A DNA stretch of 21,723 bases from Candidatus Rokuibacteriota bacterium (GTDB lineage: Bacteria > Methylomirabilota > Methylomirabilia > Rokubacteriales > CSP1-6), in NCBI GenBank assembly GCA_016184305.1, contig JACPCX010000114.1:1-21723 (forward strand), in the 5' to 3' direction. Positions 3,423-10,264 of the stretch are shown here, piece by piece. The notes under the pieces were generated by a model. It had not been told where the DNA came from, did not search any database, and was given only the letters and a program-made list of their open reading frames with translations. Position 1 is the stretch's first letter, and the number at the start of each line of letters is the position of its first letter. The position numbers were made by a program, and so were the translations under genes.

Positions 3423-3650
3423 ATGCGGATCACGAGCAAGGGGCAGGTGACGATTCCGCTGGCCATTCGACGTAAGGCCGGGCTCTTGCCGGCGACCGAG
3501 GTGGAGTTCCACCTGCGGGGGCACACCGTCGTTCTTCGCAGAGCAAGGACCACCGGAAGGCGGGGCGGCCGCCTCCTGGATTCCATGCGAGGAAGGGCCA
3601 CCACCCGGCTGACCACCGACCAGATCATGGCCCTGACGCGCCCCCGGTAG
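3423..3650 (+). CDS. vapB: AbrB/MazE/SpoVT-family antitoxin (VapB)
   Basis: MRITSKGQVTIPLAIRRKAGL swapped-hairpin signature; GGGAGG RBS; directly upstream of a PIN toxin. Confidence 0.9.
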   Translation: MRITSKGQVTIPLAIRRKAGLLPATEVEFHLRGHTVVLRRARTTGRRGGRLLDSMRGRATTRLTTDQIMALTRPR

Positions 3651-3659
3651 ACCGGCCTC

Positions 3660-4064
3660 ATGCGCGAGATCCTCGTCGACAGCAACGTCATTCTCGACGT
3701 TGTGACGGAGGACACGACGTGGTTCGAGTGGTCATCGGGGCAGATCGCGCGCCTGGCCGAAGACCATGTGCTCGTGATCAATCCCATCGTGTACTCCGAG
3801 GTCTCGGTCGGCTTCGAGCGCATCGAGGAGGTCGACTCTGCGCTGCCGGTAGACTTCTTCCGGCGGGAAGCCCTGCCCTGGGAGGCGGCGTTCCTGGCGG
3901 CCAAGTGTTTCCTGAGATATCGGCGGGCGGGCGGCCGGAAGCGCTCTCCACTCCCCGACTTCTACGTGGGAGCCCACGCGGCGGTACGCGGACTGCCGCT
4001 CCTCACACGCGATGCGCGGCGCTACCGCACCTACTTCCCGAGGCTGACGCTGGTCGCGCCCTGA
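3660..4064 (+). CDS. vapC: PIN-domain ribonuclease toxin (VapC)
   Basis: ILVDSNV, YSEV, LPDFYVGAHA and LLTRD carry the PIN acidic residues; 134 aa. Confidence 0.92.
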   Translation: MREILVDSNVILDVVTEDTTWFEWSSGQIARLAEDHVLVINPIVYSEVSVGFERIEEVDSALPVDFFRREALPWEAAFLAAKCFLRYRRAGGRKRSPLPDFYVGAHAAVRGLPLLTRDARRYRTYFPRLTLVAP

Positions 4065-4567: not shown

Positions 4568-6487
4568 TCATCCTTCCTCGACGTAGAAGAGGAGGTCTGC
4601 CAGGTCGGCGGTGGCCGCGCGGAGCCTGTCCCAGTCCCCGCCGCTGATCGCCTTGTCGATCGCCTGCTGGAACATCACCGCCTCCTCGCGGTCCTCGGCG
4701 CTCATCCGGTCGTGGAGGCGGTGGCCCCGCTCGAGCAACGCGCGTGCCTCGGAGATCGAGACCCGTCGCTCGCGCTCGCCGCCGATCTCGTGCCCGGAGG
4801 ATCGGTCCCCGGCATCCGAGCGACGCCCGCGTTCGGTCTCGTCCGCGCGTCCGGCGGCGGGCCGGGATGAGCGACCGGCCGGAGCGGCCGGAGCCTCGGC
4901 GATGCCCGCGGCGTCGTCGACATCAGTGTCGTCGACATCGTCCTCGTCGAGGTCGGCCGGGGCGAGATTCTCGGCATCGCCGAAGAGGTTCAGCATGCGG
5001 CGCCGGGCTTCCGCGACCTGAGCGTCCGTCATCGCGGTCGTCGCGCCCTCGATGGTGATGTGCTTGGCGAGTCCGGTCCGCTTCTCGGTGGCCGTCACGC
5101 GCAGGATGCCGTCGAGGTCGAGATCCAGGCGGCAGAGGACCTCGTTGCCGGCGGGGACGGCCGAGAGCCCCTCGATCAGGAAGCGGCCGACCAGGATATT
5201 GTTGAGGGCGTTGGGATCGTCGCCCTGGTAGACGGACACCTGCCACGCCTCCTGGTTGTCGGCCATGGTGACATACGTGTCGGTCCGGCTGGCGGGGAAC
5301 GGCGTGTTGCGGGCGATGACCGGATGGTAGCAGTGCTCGGACGGCCGGCCGCCGAGGAGGCCGAAGTACGAGGGCCCGAACGAGTAGGGAGAGATGTCAA
5401 CGAGGACGCGGTCGATGTCGTGGCCGCCGAGGCGAGCGGCCAGCACGCCGGCCCCGAGGGCGACGCAGAGGTCGGGGTGAACCTCCTGGCGCGGGACCAG
5501 ACCCGTCTTCTCGCGCAGCAGCTCGGACAGAAGCGGCGTCCGGGTGGCGCCACCGACCAGCAGGATCTCGTCGACCTGATCGGGCTGCTTGCCGGCGTCG
5601 GCCAGGGCCCGGTGCACGCTGTCGAGCGTGCTCTCGACCAGGTGGCGGATCAGGCGCTCGTACTCCTCGCGCGACACCTCCAGGTCGAGGTGCACGGGCA
5701 CCCCGTCGCGCACGGCCAGATGCTCCTCCCTGAGGCGCGTGTAGGGCTCGAAGCTGAGCCGCTTCTTGGCCTCCTCGGCCGCGCGCAGGAGGCGGCTCAT
5801 CGCCCGGCGGTCGTCGCGGACGTCGGGGCCTCCGGTCGCGACGAACCGGGCGAGGACGAGGTCGAGCAGGAGCTGATCGAAATCGTCGCCGCCCAGGCGG
5901 TTATTGCCGTGGCTCGCGAGGACCTCGGTCACGTCGCCGGAGACCTGCACGAGGGACACGTCGAACGTGCCGCCGCCCAGGTCGTAGACCAGCACGGTGC
6001 GGTCGCCCTCGCGATCGGAGCCGTAGGCGAGCGCCGCCGCCGTCGGCTCGTTGAGGATGCGCACGACCTCGAGGCCCGCGATCTCGCCGGCGTCGCGGGT
6101 GGCCTGGCGCTGAGCGTCCGAGAAGTAGGCGGGCACCGTGATCACCGCCCGGCGCACCGGCGCGCCGAGCACTGCCTCGGCCCGGGCCTTGAGGGCGCGC
6201 AGGATCATCGCCGAGATCTCCGGCGGCGAGTACGTCGGCCCGCCCATGGCGACGCGCTCGCCGGAGCCCATCAGCCGCTTGATCGACTTGACGGTCCGCT
6301 CGGGATAGATCACGTATTGGTTGCGGGCCGGGGTGCCGACCAGCGGCGTGCCGTCGGGCGAGAGCCCCACGAACGAGGGCATGATCTGCTCGCCGTCGGC
6401 GGCGAGCACCTGGACATTGCCGTCCACGAGCGCCGCCACCTCGGAGTTCGTCGTCCCCAGATCGATCCCGACGATCACGTCAGCCAT
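4568..6487 (-). CDS. Hsp70 family chaperone, divergent DnaK paralog (639 aa)
   Basis: GIDLGTTNS, SIKRLMG, TVPAYF, RILNEPTAAA, YDLGGGTFDVS, LGGDDFD, LVGGATRTP, DNQ...VYQG. Start is ATG 6487 (MADVIVG), overlapping the grpE stop. Confidence 0.95.
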   Translation of the reverse strand: MADVIVGIDLGTTNSEVAALVDGNVQVLAADGEQIMPSFVGLSPDGTPLVGTPARNQYVIYPERTVKSIKRLMGSGERVAMGGPTYSPPEISAMILRALKARAEAVLGAPVRRAVITVPAYFSDAQRQATRDAGEIAGLEVVRILNEPTAAALAYGSDREGDRTVLVYDLGGGTFDVSLVQVSGDVTEVLASHGNNRLGGDDFDQLLLDLVLARFVATGGPDVRDDRRAMSRLLRAAEEAKKRLSFEPYTRLREEHLAVRDGVPVHLDLEVSREEYERLIRHLVESTLDSVHRALADAGKQPDQVDEILLVGGATRTPLLSELLREKTGLVPRQEVHPDLCVALGAGVLAARLGGHDIDRVLVDISPYSFGPSYFGLLGGRPSEHCYHPVIARNTPFPASRTDTYVTMADNQEAWQVSVYQGDDPNALNNILVGRFLIEGLSAVPAGNEVLCRLDLDLDGILRVTATEKRTGLAKHITIEGATTAMTDAQVAEARRRMLNLFGDAENLAPADLDEDDVDDTDVDDAAGIAEAPAAPAGRSSRPAAGRADETERGRRSDAGDRSSGHEIGGERERRVSISEARALLERGHRLHDRMSAEDREEAVMFQQAIDKAISGGDWDRLRAATADLADLLFYVEEG

Positions 6488-7430
6488 GGGATTCTCCCGT
6501 TGCCGCCGGCGGATTGCCGGCGACCTTGACCTCGGCAAAACGGAGCACCCTGCCATCGGCGGTGTAGCCCGGGCGGAACACCTCGAGCACCGTTCCCGCT
6601 GATGCCGCGGGGGTGGCCGCCACCTCCACCGCCCGCATTACCCGCGGGTCGAACGGCTTGCCCAGGGATGGGATCTCGTGGACGTCGAGCCGCTGGAGCG
6701 CGTCGTCGAGCCGCTCGAGCGCGAGCCCGTTGCCCTCGACCAGCGCCTCGAGCACGGGACGCTGCCCGAAGCGCGCCCGGAGCCCGCGGAGCCCGGCCAG
6801 CCGGCGGCGGGCCTCCTCGAGCCCGCGCGTGAAGCGATCGCGCACCTCCAGCAGCTCGGCCACCAGCTCGAGCCGCGCCTCGCGCCGGGCCTCGGCGAGC
6901 TTCTTCGCGACGGCATCCGGACTGCTGACACTCTCGGCGAGACGCGTGAGCGCTGCGCCGAGCTCGGCGTGCAGGCGATTGGTGGCGCGGCCCTGGAGCT
7001 GCGTCTCGCGGGTCAGCGCGGCGAGCTGGGCCAGCAGCGAGAACAGATCGGGGACCTGCTCGGGAGCCGGCATCGCCTCGGGCGCGAGCCCAGGAGGCGG
7101 CGGTTCCGCCTCGTCCAGCTCGTCGAGCCACGCCACGACCGACTCCAGGAAGACGCGGCGGCGCTCGGGATCGCGCAGGCTTGCGGGGCGACGTTCACCG
7201 GGGCCGCTCGCGGGACTCGTCGTCTCCTCTCGCTCTGCGACTGGGTCGGCCCGGCCCTCGTGATCGCTCGCCTCGTGCTGCGGCCCACTCGCGTCTGAGG
7301 GCGTGAAGGAATCGGCGCGTGGAATCTCGGTGAAGGGTGGTGGCTGGGGGAGTCCGAGCGGGGCGACGACCCCTTCGAACGAGCAATCCGGCGCCGCTCC
7401 CTCCGACGTTGACTCCCTCGACTCGCTCAT
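6480..7430 (-). CDS. grpE: GrpE-like nucleotide exchange factor with long N-terminal extension
   Basis: LLEVRDRFTRGL, GKPFDPRVMRAV and VLEVFRPGY..GRVLRFAEVKV match the GrpE helical bundle and beta domain; ATGA overlap with the J-domain gene. Confidence 0.88.
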   Translation of the reverse strand: MSESRESTSEGAAPDCSFEGVVAPLGLPQPPPFTEIPRADSFTPSDASGPQHEASDHEGRADPVAEREETTSPASGPGERRPASLRDPERRRVFLESVVAWLDELDEAEPPPPGLAPEAMPAPEQVPDLFSLLAQLAALTRETQLQGRATNRLHAELGAALTRLAESVSSPDAVAKKLAEARREARLELVAELLEVRDRFTRGLEEARRRLAGLRGLRARFGQRPVLEALVEGNGLALERLDDALQRLDVHEIPSLGKPFDPRVMRAVEVAATPAASAGTVLEVFRPGYTADGRVLRFAEVKVAGNPPAATGESHG

Positions 7431-7717
7431 GACCGGTCACCCCGAAGGACGTCGAGCCACGGGCCCGGGCCGACGTGGCGCCGCTCGTCCGGCATCGCGT
7501 CGAGAAGCGCCTCCAGGCGGTCGAGCGGCGCCGGACCGAACAGCCGTAGCGCGAGGCGGCGCTCCTCGTCACGCACGGCCTCGTAGGCCTCGCGGATGCG
7601 CCGGAATCCCTCCGGGTCGCGGTCGGGCGGCGAGCGCCGGACCGCCGCCAGATAGGCGGCACGCACGGTGTCGTCGTCCGCCATCTCCTCGATCCCGAGC
7701 ACCGCGAACGGGTTCAC
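7427..7717 (-). CDS. Minimal J-domain (DnaJ-like) protein with PPD in place of HPD
   Basis: MNPFAVLGI...VRAAYLAAVRRSPPDRDPEGFRRIREAYEAV is the J-domain helix I-III pattern; 96 aa; GTGA overlap with the upstream gene. Confidence 0.85.
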   Translation of the reverse strand: MNPFAVLGIEEMADDDTVRAAYLAAVRRSPPDRDPEGFRRIREAYEAVRDEERRLALRLFGPAPLDRLEALLDAMPDERRHVGPGPWLDVLRGDRS

Positions 7718-10161
7718 GGGTTCTTCTCCAGGAAGGCGAGGAAGTCGTCAAACAGGTCTCGCTGCGGCCATCGTGGCGCCCGCCGCCGCTTGCGCCGCGC
7801 CTTCTCGGCCGTGAAGGTGGGCACCTGCCGGTGCGCGCGCTCGGCCGTGACAAGCCGCGCGATTTCCACCGTCGTCAGTGGCTCCATGTCAGCGACCGGC
7901 ACGGGCGGGGCCCAGGGAGCGGTGTCGGGCGAGCGCGCGAGGGCGTCGATCCCGGACGAGGCCTCGCGCACGGCGTCCATGTCGCGCGCGCGGCCGGCCA
8001 GCTCGCGCGCGGCACGCAGGCAGAGCGCGGCACGGTCGCGATCGCGACGCGACGCGGCGGCCGAGAGCGCGCGGCCACGCGCGAGGAGAAAACGGTGGAG
8101 CAGGGGCCCATCGCCGGCGAGCCCCTCCCCGGAGGCGGCGTAGGTCAGGGCCGGCCGGCCCATGTGGAGCCCGCCGACGCACAGCGAGTGAAGATCGGCG
8201 GGAGCAGCGCCGCTGAGGTCACGTTCGACCCGGGCAAGCAGGGCCGGTGGCACGGCGAGGGGGCGATCCAGCGCGCGAAACAGGTCACCCGAGCGGGCCA
8301 GCGCCTGGACGGTCTCGGCCGGCGAGGCCGGATCGGGCGCGTCGGGCGGCGGCTCGAGCCCGAACGACTCGGCCACCGACGACAAGATCAACGCGAGCAT
8401 CGTGGGGTTCCCGAGCCGTGACGCCAGCTCCTCGTGCAGCCGCACGGCGGCGGCCCCGTCGCCGTTCCGGCGCGTCGCCACCGACCGGACCGCGCCGAGA
8501 TATGCCGAGGTGTCACCGCTCGTCGCGACCGGCTCCTTCTCCAGGCGGTCGAGATCAGCCAGGGCGAGCGCGAACCGGCCTTCCCGGATCCGTCGCTCCG
8601 CGCTGGCGAGGAGCAGCCGGAAGCGGCTCTGCCGCACCTCGGGGTGCACCCGGTTGATCGCCTCGGCGAGGTCGAGCAGGTCGAGCGCCTTCCGGTGGGC
8701 GCCGCGCCGCTCGGCCGCGCGCACCAGGTGCAGCAGCGGCTCCAGGTCCCGCGGGTGCGCCTGCCGCCACGCTTCGGCCAGGGCCTCCGCCTGCCGGGGG
8801 TCGCGCGTCTCCCAGTGCGCGACGAGCGCCTGAAACACGCGCGGATCGGGATCGGCCTGGCGCGCGCGTGCCAGGAGACGGCCGCGGTCGACCCACTCCG
8901 GAAGCTCGCCGTCCCGGACCAGCGCCTCGAGCTCCTCCTCGGAGTCGACCTCGAACGTGTCGAGCACTTCCGCGCGATCGGCCGGGAACAGCTCGGCCAT
9001 GTGCAGAAGGACGCGCGACGGCGCGCGCCCCGCCGCGAGCAGGGTGCCGGCGCGAATCGCGGCCATGAGGTAGGCGTCCCAGGAGATGAGCGCCTCCTCC
9101 CACGCCCCCGCGCGCTCCAGCGTGAGGGCGATCAGCCGCTGCGTTTCGCGCTGCCAGTCGAGGTTGCGCCGGTCCCGGCGCAATGCCTCGATCAGGGGCT
9201 TGAGATTCAGGTTCAGCCGATACCAGTGCTGGAGCACCGTGGCCGTGAAGATCCGCTTGACTGGCACAGGCTCGAAGTCGAACAAGGGCATGATGCGCTC
9301 GACGGCGGCGACCGCAGTCCGCGGATCCCTCGCCTCGAGCGCGCGGCCGAGGCGCAGCAGGTGCTGCCGGAGCAGGGTCCGCCCCCCGCTGACGGCCCTG
9401 ATCAAGGCACCGACTGCGGGCGATCGCTGATCCAGCGCCCCGGGCTCTCCGATCAGATGACGCAGCACGGGCACGAGCCGCGCCGGGGCGGCGTGCGGCG
9501 GAATCGCATCGAGATTGGCGAGCGCCACGCCGTCCGCGCGCCGGTAGTACGCGTCGAGCGCCCGGATCAGGAGCTTCCATGGCGCCAGCGGCGAGTGACG
9601 CGAGACCTGGTCCAGGGCGGCGAGGGCGCCGTCGGGCAAGGGGCCGCTCGTCACCGCGGCGAACAGGTCACACACCGCCCGCGCGGCGCGCCGCAGTGGC
9701 TCGTCGGCGGCCAGCGCGTCAGCGTCGGCAAGCAGGCGTGGGTCCCGGAGCTCCCGCGTCAGGATCGCTTCGATCTCCTGCCGGCGCGGCCGGGCGGCCG
9801 CCGCCAGCTCCGCCAGGAGCGGCCGGAGGTCGCCGGCGGCGATCGCCTTGCTCTGGCGCACGAGCGGCACGATGCGGTGGCGGTGTGCCGGGAACCGCTC
9901 GCCGACGAGCGCGGCCAGCGCCGTCGCCTCGTCGTACAGGCCCTGCGCGAGCATCTCGCCGATGCGCGCCTCGTAGGCGGCGATGACGAGCGCCTCGGCC
10001 TCGGTGCTCCGCGCCTCCTTGAAGAATTGCTTGGCGAGGTCGAGCGCCCCCCGCGTGTTGCCGGAGGCGATCAGGGATTCGACGCGAACCCGTGACTCCC
10101 CGGGACTCGTGAGGGGCTGGACCGGCCGGTGATGGGATGGGCGCTTGTCACGTTTGCTCAT
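7714..10161 (-). CDS. Large all-helical, TPR-like hypothetical protein (815 aa), first gene of the Hsp70 operon
   Basis: Long ORF of Ala/Leu/Arg-rich amphipathic helices (e.g. ALDLLDLAEAINRVHP, ALADLDRLE); AGGAG RBS before ATG 10161; stop overlaps the J-protein start. No recognisable catalytic motif. Confidence 0.8.
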   Translation of the reverse strand: MSKRDKRPSHHRPVQPLTSPGESRVRVESLIASGNTRGALDLAKQFFKEARSTEAEALVIAAYEARIGEMLAQGLYDEATALAALVGERFPAHRHRIVPLVRQSKAIAAGDLRPLLAELAAAARPRRQEIEAILTRELRDPRLLADADALAADEPLRRAARAVCDLFAAVTSGPLPDGALAALDQVSRHSPLAPWKLLIRALDAYYRRADGVALANLDAIPPHAAPARLVPVLRHLIGEPGALDQRSPAVGALIRAVSGGRTLLRQHLLRLGRALEARDPRTAVAAVERIMPLFDFEPVPVKRIFTATVLQHWYRLNLNLKPLIEALRRDRRNLDWQRETQRLIALTLERAGAWEEALISWDAYLMAAIRAGTLLAAGRAPSRVLLHMAELFPADRAEVLDTFEVDSEEELEALVRDGELPEWVDRGRLLARARQADPDPRVFQALVAHWETRDPRQAEALAEAWRQAHPRDLEPLLHLVRAAERRGAHRKALDLLDLAEAINRVHPEVRQSRFRLLLASAERRIREGRFALALADLDRLEKEPVATSGDTSAYLGAVRSVATRRNGDGAAAVRLHEELASRLGNPTMLALILSSVAESFGLEPPPDAPDPASPAETVQALARSGDLFRALDRPLAVPPALLARVERDLSGAAPADLHSLCVGGLHMGRPALTYAASGEGLAGDGPLLHRFLLARGRALSAAASRRDRDRAALCLRAARELAGRARDMDAVREASSGIDALARSPDTAPWAPPVPVADMEPLTTVEIARLVTAERAHRQVPTFTAEKARRKRRRAPRWPQRDLFDDFLAFLEKNP

Positions 10162-10234
10162 GCCGCGCTCCTGGCTCCTGCGCCGGCCGGCCTCGGGATC
10201 CGATTCCCCCGCGCCCGGCGTCGGGAATCCCCGC

Positions 10235-10264
10235 ATTATGGGGTCGAAGGCGCCACCTTGTCTA
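10235..10264 (-). promoter_or_regulatory. Candidate sigma70-type promoter of the Hsp70 operon
   Basis: Minus strand TAGACA (10264-10259), 18 nt, CATAAT (10240-10235), followed by a GATTCCC...GGGAATC inverted repeat (10202-10229) in the leader. Confidence 0.5.

Follow-up and report, generated by a model that had tools for sequence, protein, structure and literature searches.

The stretch of DNA analysed here (the window, 21,723 nucleotides (nt) in length; contig JACPCX010000114.1 of assembly GCA_016184305.1, Candidatus Rokuibacteriota bacterium) carries on its minus strand a cassette of genes coding for a large all-helical protein, hereafter the scaffold, a J-like protein, a GrpE-like protein, an HscC-like Hsp70 and a small zinc-ribbon protein (Table 1). 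Close to its C-terminus the scaffold bears the pentapeptide QRDLF, which a first-pass annotation had read as a possible binding motif for the beta sliding clamp (DnaN), and the nature of this tail is the subject of our analysis. When read from its first ATG the scaffold open reading frame (ORF) is 840 amino acids (aa) long (7714-10236, minus strand); since M26 of this frame aligns to residue 1 of the homologues P0016, P0033, P0125, P0229 and P0237, and homologue lengths cluster at 811-817 aa, the 815-aa product (7714-10161) is the right protein, and the length first annotated was upheld. The scaffold-family profile matches engineered TPR chains in the PDB at profile positions ~420-510. No Pfam match was found among 50 members of the family, and neither the scaffold nor 50 relatives showed any DNA-related Pfam or NCBIfam domain.

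The Hsp70-system context reported for the scaffold also held, as J-domain, GrpE-like and Hsp70 proteins are encoded next to it. Related loci were found with a 12-sequence alignment (A2; alignment A1 comprises 40 sequences), which gave 80 loci in named genomes. In 59 of the 61 loci with at least 3.4 kb downstream, the order of the J-like, GrpE-like and Hsp70 genes is the same (exceptions, L018 and L073). A comparable zinc-ribbon ORF comes after the Hsp70 gene in 61 of 62 loci (exception, L060) and in all 23 of another count; no further conserved neighbour, DNA-related or other, was seen among ORFs of at least 120 aa at these loci. In the window, where the scaffold gene leads a compact minus-strand operon, the GTG start of the J-like gene overlaps the scaffold stop (GTGA) and the GrpE-like gene overlaps the J-like gene as ATGA. 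These overlaps and the kept gene order, together with a J-like protein of only 96 aa lacking a client-binding domain, suggest that the products form one complex in which the scaffold would act as client or adaptor. The tripeptide region of the J-like protein reads RSPPDRD instead of the HPD that canonical J domains carry between helices II and III, and HPD was found in none of 76 J-like sequences from the related loci (L001-L087); 63 of them match the PPD pattern and the rest show PPE, an offset PPD or, by eye, SPD (L031, a cut ORF). Additionally, the J-like protein ends in a conserved FVGPxPWLxVLK motif.

Table 1. Features of the cassette and of the scaffold tail, in window coordinates.
Feature	Position	Strand	Remarks
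Scaffold, 815 aa, all-alpha, TPR-like	7714..10161	minus	no Pfam family
J-like protein, 96 aa, DjlB/DjlC type	7427..7717	minus	Pfam DnaJ, E 7.5e-08; PPD for HPD
GrpE-like protein, 316 aa	6480..7430	minus	Pfam GrpE, E 9.3e-24, residues 163-304; long N-terminal extension
HscC-like Hsp70, 639 aa	4568..6487	minus	Pfam HSP70, E 2.6e-137; 5-residue insertion in loop L1,2
Zinc-ribbon and helical protein, 112 aa	4213..4551	minus	N-terminal CPTCRAPWRG...CPRCGTDL; no Pfam match
QRDLF, clamp-motif-like pentapeptide	7750..7764	minus	codons CAG CGA GAC CTG TTT (7764 to 7750)
Basic patch KARRKRRRAPRWP	7765..7803	minus	directly before QRDLF
DLFDDFLAFLEK, predicted acidic amphipathic helix	7723..7758	minus	hydrophobic at motif positions 4, 5, 8, 9, 11 and 12
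GGAG, Shine-Dalgarno-like site of the J-like gene	7726..7729	minus	inside scaffold tail codons L-E-K; ctGGAGaagaacccGTGa

The minus-strand codons place QRDLF in the C-terminal tail of the scaffold, after a Pro/Arg-rich stretch and 11 residues (DDFLAFLEKNP) ahead of the stop codon (TGA, 7716-7714), from where it runs on into a probable helix. Both the strongly basic patch that the first-pass annotation had described ahead of it (KARRKRRRAPRWP) and the fit of the pentapeptide to the bacterial clamp consensus, QL[S/D]LF or more generally QxxLF (PMC12309361, PMC6511837), were confirmed. The helix would extend over DLFDDFLAFLEK, whose hydrophobic residues are spaced as in an amphipathic helix; the helical hydrophobic moment comes to 0.57, compared with 0.28 ± 0.14 in 5000 shuffles, 2.5% of which reach 0.57. 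The same end of the gene holds the putative ribosome-binding site of the next one: GGAG lies 21 nt downstream of QRDLF and 9-12 nt upstream of the J-like GTG start (7717-7715), which overlaps the scaffold TGA. As GGAG falls within the L-E-K codons, the conserved glutamate at motif position 13 may be partly dual-coded, and part of the tail conservation may reflect dual coding of this site and of the stop/GTG overlap.

In order to put a figure on the chance of such a match we used a proxy proteome of the window's own genome, made of 2710 ORFs picked by GC content at third and second codon positions (GC3/GC2), which is a rough selection. Q.[DS]LF occurs 8 times in the 951,953 positions of this set, equivalent to ~0.007 expected occurrences per 815-aa protein, and it falls within the final 20 residues of only two of the 2710 ORFs, the scaffold and one superfamily 2 (SF2) helicase. 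Judged against this background, chance alone would seldom produce the QRDLF match, which was, however, singled out post hoc by a motif-scanning reader. The SF2/XPB-like helicase (ResIII, Helicase_C and an ERCC3/RAD25/XPB C-terminal domain; a 491-aa ORF on the minus strand of the 6113-base contig C152 of the own genome, G000) has at its end a basic patch and then QAQQLDLF-COOH, which looks like a textbook case of a C-terminal clamp motif. With respect to C-termini as a whole, 2 of the 2710 ORFs end in Q..hF (h, hydrophobic), 5 in PF and 32 in a polybasic stretch, and none ends in [DE]-hydrophobic-PF.

We analysed conservation in the 815-aa subfamily by aligning the last 90 residues of the window protein with those of 115 homologues of at least 750 aa, taken from 120 homologues among the matches listed, of 141 with E ≤0.001 (five shorter ones were dropped). 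The first-pass annotation had looked to conservation of Qx[DS]LF in otherwise variable tails as a sign of clamp binding, and within the subfamily this expectation failed: the glutamine is kept in only 20 of the 115 homologues, mostly near relatives, since it is present in 13 of the 14 with at least 60% identity to the window protein and in 7 of the 101 below. By identity class, the glutamine and a hydrophobic pair at positions 4 and 5 are found, respectively, in 12 and 13 of 13 homologues at 74-100%, in 1 and 1 of 1 at 60-73%, in 5 and 23 of 23 at 55-59%, in 2 and 42 of 49 at 52-54% and in 0 and 16 of 29 at 45-51%, so that the pair (L-F/L) is present in 95 of the 115. The glutamine is usually replaced by P, M or L, in common forms such as PRGLL, PRGLF and MRGLF. 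Counted over all 116 tails, the window's included, Q occurs in 21. A hydrophobic residue stands at position 4 in 96 tails, at positions 8 and 9 in 113 each and at positions 11 and 12 in 106 of 108 filled cells each, and 100 tails have F, L, M or I at position 5. D/E predominates at positions 6-7, and the columns of the basic patch hold R/K in ~105. The tail pattern of the subfamily consists of a basic run and then [LM][FL][DE][DE]-h-[FL]-x-[FL][LF]-E. According to this alignment, the conserved unit is the basic patch plus the predicted helix and not Qx[DS]LF.

Positions 1, 4 and 5 of the clamp motif are critical, as their mutation weakens or abolishes clamp binding (PMC12309361). Since the glutamine at position 1 is lost in most homologues, the subfamily-wide function of the segment cannot depend on it, and its restriction to the nearest relatives indicates that selection across the subfamily maintains something other than clamp binding on this segment. 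The window's particular protein may still bind the clamp. Conservation of positions 1, 4 and 5 among carriers is seen in parts of the wider family only.

This wider family was explored with a HMMER search, which gave 871 representatives with E ≤0.001; tail classes were taken from the best 150 of the 871 and counted in 132 listed proteins of at least 740 aa, with slight overlap between classes. A polybasic end is present in 69 of the 132, Q..[LMIF]F within the last 25 residues in 21 (exactly at the C-terminus in 14), a PF end in 12, and 30 were classed as other; 7 of the 132 end in [DE]-hydrophobic-PF. From the frequency in the bodies of these proteins (22 hits in 115,383 positions), Q..[LMIF]F would be expected in 0.53 of the 132 tails, so the 21 observed represent ~40 times the background. 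Tails that do not end in a polybasic stretch mostly show a basic run before the tip (by eye, uncounted), and on these tails the basic run is the one feature common to the whole family. Around these basic runs the tips differ widely. Tips selected for a QxxhF end have the consensus PPP[EG]QGSLF-COOH, with variation at positions 2 and 3 of the motif and common prolines before it, other tails are SSB-like (...SDDAPF, ...DDDMPF, QRDLFDDMPF), and those of Bryobacterales type read LLNRLFGPG...RRKKGRRR. In two hybrid tails, QRDLFDDMPF (L087) and QGDLFDDVPF (P0166), a start of the window type is joined to an SSB-like end. A CxCPxCR(A/R)xR zinc-knuckle-like motif was also observed between body and basic tail in several distant homologues, namely P0140, P0155, P0179, P0180, P0189, P0192, P0193, P0203, P0219 and L063.

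The distribution of these tips was followed on a FastTree phylogeny of 219 family members from which the last 110 residues had been removed and which was rooted at the midpoint. Tail state changes at least 48 times on this tree, and Q-x-x-h-F tips appear in at least six separate clades (L074 is, by eye, a false positive of the pattern), among them a Terriglobales-type clade of Terracidiphilus, Edaphobacter, Granulicella and Acidobacteriaceae with the motif in 33 of 34 members. In the branch of the window protein the Q-bearing lineages are basal and paraphyletic (P0130; P0001/P0010/P0013/P0016; P0124/P0033; P0018), which suggests, with a direction that depends on the midpoint root, that the glutamine is ancestral in this branch and was lost later. 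Seven independent sister pairs contrasting a Q-tip with a polybasic end were also compared: only three motif columns covary, which MAFFT aligns to the Q, L and F of the window, and no column of the scaffold body was found to track tip class in at least 5 of the 7 pairs, a comparison of low power. No receptor site for the tip was thus seen co-evolving inside the scaffold, which argues, with the little power of seven pairs, against a tip that docks back on it. In sum, QRDLF belongs to a tail that is real, conserved and modular, yet the subfamily does not conserve it as a clamp motif. A better candidate than the tip for a contact made by the whole family is an E[RK]-x5-[FY/V]P motif just before the tail (AERAHRQVPTF in the window; scaffold residues ~795-808 in the 840-aa numbering, ~7810-7851 on the minus strand), which is invariant or nearly so family-wide, with E799 invariant and P806 kept in at least 90% of alignment A1.

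The Hsp70 of the cassette offers a possible explanation for the basic run. With E. coli HscC it shares 38% identity across 502 aa (E 7e-97) as well as the signature PYS[LF]G. Furthermore, loop L1,2 of its beta-sandwich substrate-binding domain holds five residues that Geobacillus DnaK lacks. They align with the insertion of E. coli HscC, and an insertion of 4-8 residues in this loop is a hallmark of HscC (PMC8215388). In peptide binding by E. coli HscC, positive charge makes by far the main contribution (Mayer review, PMC8215388). The substrate-binding loop of the cassette Hsp70s (SPYSFG.S[YF]LG.RGG..Y.HCY) is essentially the same in loci whose scaffolds carry QxxLF, DDxPF or polybasic tails, so that the ligand should be common to all tail classes; the basic run fits this, the variable tip does not. 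The reading that we favour, at somewhat less than even probability, is that the tail constitutes a two-part handle. The Arg/Lys run would provide a grip for the cassette's own Hsp70, and the predicted helix DLFDDFLAFLEK, whose first hydrophobic residues are the LF of QRDLF, would serve as a docking peptide, specific to the clade, for some partner that lies outside the body of the scaffold. A parallel to the proposed grip is that of HscA on the LPPVK peptide of IscU. A precedent for such a handle is also found in the clathrin heavy chain, an alpha-solenoid in which a C-terminal QLMLT site, gripped by Hsc70, is needed for uncoating by Hsc70 and auxilin (PMC2830701).

Several points weigh against this two-part handle. 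The preference for positively charged peptides was determined with E. coli HscC, to which the window Hsp70 has an identity of only 38%, and the latter scores higher against Geobacillus DnaK (407 bits) than against HscC (296 bits). Acidic residues such as those of the helix would be unfavourable for a DnaK-type groove. In addition, the handle leaves unexplained both the precise recurrence of Q, L and F in several clades and the copying of SSB tips in others. The window Hsp70 itself terminates in ...DLLFYVEEG (4568-4612, minus strand), and in 63 of the 64 related loci in which this C-terminus was read the protein ends in ...ELLFFVEG followed by 1-3 residues (rarely FFM, FFI, FFT, FFL or FFA), whatever the tail class of the scaffold. 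By analogy with EEVD, this C-terminus might dock on the TPR-like scaffold. The own genome also carries a canonical DnaK and a second paralogue.

The tail could instead hold a working beta-clamp motif, with its basic part on or near DNA and Q-x-x-L-F in the DnaN cleft, thereby bringing the scaffold and its Hsp70 machine to clamps that have stayed on DNA or to the replisome. We consider this possible but rather doubtful for the window protein. The pentapeptide fits the consensus and follows a proline-containing basic linker, and both the family tips PPP[EG]QGSLF-COOH and the window's QRDLFD are close to the internal motifs of Pol III alpha, which read GQASLFD in the own genome, GQGSFFD in a related genome, GQSGFFG in Edaphobacter and GQTSLLE in a metagenome-assembled genome (MAG) of Nitrospirales. 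The only other proxy ORF with a Q.[DS]LF tail is a DNA helicase, and the enrichment of Q..[LMIF]F in the wider family, its presence in at least six clades and in nearly all Terriglobales-type members and the apparently Q-bearing ancestry of the window's branch all point in the same direction. However, 95 of 115 subfamily homologues have lost the glutamine with the rest of the segment still conserved, about half of the wider family (69 of 132) lacks such a motif, and a compensating Q..hF motif, looked for at the N-termini of the GrpE-like proteins in 73 loci, was absent. The cassette is moreover rare and dispensable (5 of 136 genomes of its own phylum), no DNA-related domain or neighbour goes with it, the LF here continues into a helix, unlike in the C-terminal tips, and short acidic-hydrophobic motifs resemble the ligands of several different hubs. 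Because most of the subfamily is without the glutamine and LF belongs to a longer helix, we put clamp binding by the window protein no higher. The clamp docking proposed in the first pass thus finds support in the enriched, Pol III alpha-like tips of the wider family and is weakened by the loss of Q within the subfamily; for the Q-x-x-L-F tips the sliding clamp would be the best specific candidate, and the "replisome surveillance" that had been attached to it is speculation. With respect to the clamp and its known ligands, no dnaN match was found in the window's own assembly (88.8% complete); the dnaN of a same-genus genome lies at L005:1501-2592, and the DnaN alignment was drawn from the 41-genome tally with the unpublished G012, on which nothing here depends, left out. 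No clear QxxLF was seen at the C-termini of Y-family polymerases from five genomes, which therefore gave no local reference. The own-genome Pol III alpha occupies one 1637-aa frame (G000:C168:40505-44848, plus strand), whose family match falls into two parts (model positions 1-750 and 748-1022) with ~400 aa between them, probably an intein; G001 shows the same.

A different hub or surface, such as a pocket of the type that binds SSB tips or FtsZ tails, nucleic acid or a membrane, was also considered as the target of the tail, and seems to us improbable. In its favour, the 12 PF-COOH ends among 132 representatives, 7 of them [DE]-hydrophobic-PF, compare with 5 and 0 of the 2710 own-genome ORFs, family tails resemble the SSB tips TDDDVPF, AEDDIPF and TDSDIPF of cassette-carrying genomes (the own SSB ends in EGDEEVPF), the two hybrid tails join a window-type start to an SSB-like end, and the tails of Bryobacterales type read LLNRLFGPG...RRKKGRRR. 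The window tail itself, however, ends in ...FLEKNP and not in PF. A resemblance of DDFLAFLEKNP to the tail of the own FtsZ (DLDVPAFLRRQAD) was set aside because the charge after AFL is reversed (E-K compared with R-R) and the proline is absent. For membranes, the MinD-type membrane-targeting sequences provide a parallel to a polybasic run with an amphipathic helix; against it, the acidic polar face of the helix would be poor for anionic membranes, and the glutamine strictly kept in several clades is unneeded for binding to either membrane or nucleic acid. Lastly, the resemblance might have arisen by chance and have no role in binding, the conservation at the gene end coming from the overlapping ribosome-binding site and the next start. 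The GGAG in the L-E-K codons and the stop that overlaps the GTG start speak for it, as do the accidental matches that five residues allow and a choice made post hoc. We regard this as very improbable, since the Shine-Dalgarno constraint covers only 4 nt that lie 21 nt downstream of QRDLF, 115 homologues with identities of 47-93% retain the hydrophobic periodicity and tail motifs are enriched at least 40-fold over background.

Compared with known clamp motifs (Pol III alpha, PolC, Pol II/IV), the window tail shares with them the residues Q, L and F at positions 1, 4 and 5 of a pentapeptide that lies near a terminus, after a presumably flexible linker, and QRDLF is nearly the same as the QASLFD of the own-genome Pol III alpha. 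PolC carries QLSLF at its C-terminus (PMC12309361), as distant scaffold homologues carry QGSLF. The carrier differs, being a TPR-like chaperone scaffold with no DNA-related domain and with no glutamine in most of the subfamily, as does the continuation of LF into a conserved, predicted amphipathic helix. In the case of the SSB tip (D-D-D-I/V-P-F-COOH), some family members end in DDxPF-COOH and the hybrids start as QRDLF and end as DDMPF, whereas the window protein has no PF end and the family tip follows a basic tract, not an acidic one. The clathrin heavy chain likewise is a large alpha-solenoid, whose flexible C-terminal tail holds a short Q-x-hydrophobic motif that is the target of an Hsp70 brought in by a J-protein (PMC2830701); clathrin is, however, eukaryotic and without homology to the scaffold, in which the likely grip is the basic run.

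Another close system is that of E. coli HscC, whose locus reads ybeQ-ybeR-djlB-ybeT-ybeU-djlC-hscC (Kluck et al. 2002, as reviewed in PMC8215388). The two agree in the L1,2 insertion and PYS[LF]G of the Hsp70, in a short J domain of DjlB/DjlC type, in repeat-protein partners encoded alongside and in their sporadic occurrence. They differ in that the cassette has its own GrpE-like gene, present in 59 of 61 loci, while HscC is defined as working without GrpE, and in that its Hsp70 has 639 aa compared with 550-580; in addition, its 96-aa J-like protein is soluble and carries PPD, where DjlB and DjlC carry HPE. A kinship of the scaffold to E. coli YbeQ (Sel1) or YbeR (DUF1266) was rejected (hhalign probability 0.1 each).

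Taken one step further, the cassette could be imagined as an Hsp70 remodelling machine for the replisome or single-stranded DNA, in which interchangeable copies of the two universal ligands of replisome hubs, a clamp motif (QxxLF) and an SSB-tip mimic (DDxPF), would stand beside a basic run that binds DNA or Hsp70; we think this unlikely, and the link to the replisome is a testable idea, not a finding. Were it true, such targeting would be fitting for a module that moves horizontally and needs to plug into any host, and it would give a mechanistic lead to the unexplained ultraviolet (UV) sensitivity of E. coli hscC mutants (as cited in PMC8215388). In any case the cassette provides a concrete handle on what HscC-type systems act on, namely a basic run together with a clade-dependent clamp-like tip, SSB-like tip or helix. 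If the tips bind DnaN or the partners of SSB, this would be the first dedicated link of an Hsp70 machine to bacterial replisome hubs; if they do not, the tails are still short baits with which to fish out a client or partner. In the literature searched, which did not extend to subscription journals, neither the cassette nor a clamp motif carried by a chaperone scaffold was found described.

With regard to its distribution, the cassette is rare and patchy. It was found in 4 of 41 related genomes, one of the five carriers in its own phylum has two copies, and among 151 genomes sampled evenly across the phylum to which Edaphobacter belongs only the starting genome has it, plus one partial match. 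By taxon labels as deposited, it occurs in Acidobacteriota, Planctomycetota, Desulfobacterales, Rokuibacteriota, Nitrospirales, Hydrogenedentales and Binatia-type MAGs, and Edaphobacter aggregans DSM 19364 is a cultured carrier. Searches of viral contigs, plasmids and phages revealed no relatives. In genome G052, of the same order, two scaffold copies lie ~25 kb apart (C55:484870-487311 and 510317-512758), both of which end in QRDLFDDLFAFLEKNP. PADLOC gave no meaningful match to a defence system, and the GTPase-centred Hsp70/GrpE conflict systems (PMC7159879) were rejected as a model for the cassette, given that they require a GAP1-N2 GTPase and none is present here. Finally, a VapBC-like pair, consisting of a MazE/AbrB-type antitoxin (3423-3650, plus strand) and a PIN-domain toxin (3660-4064, plus strand), converges on the end of the cassette.

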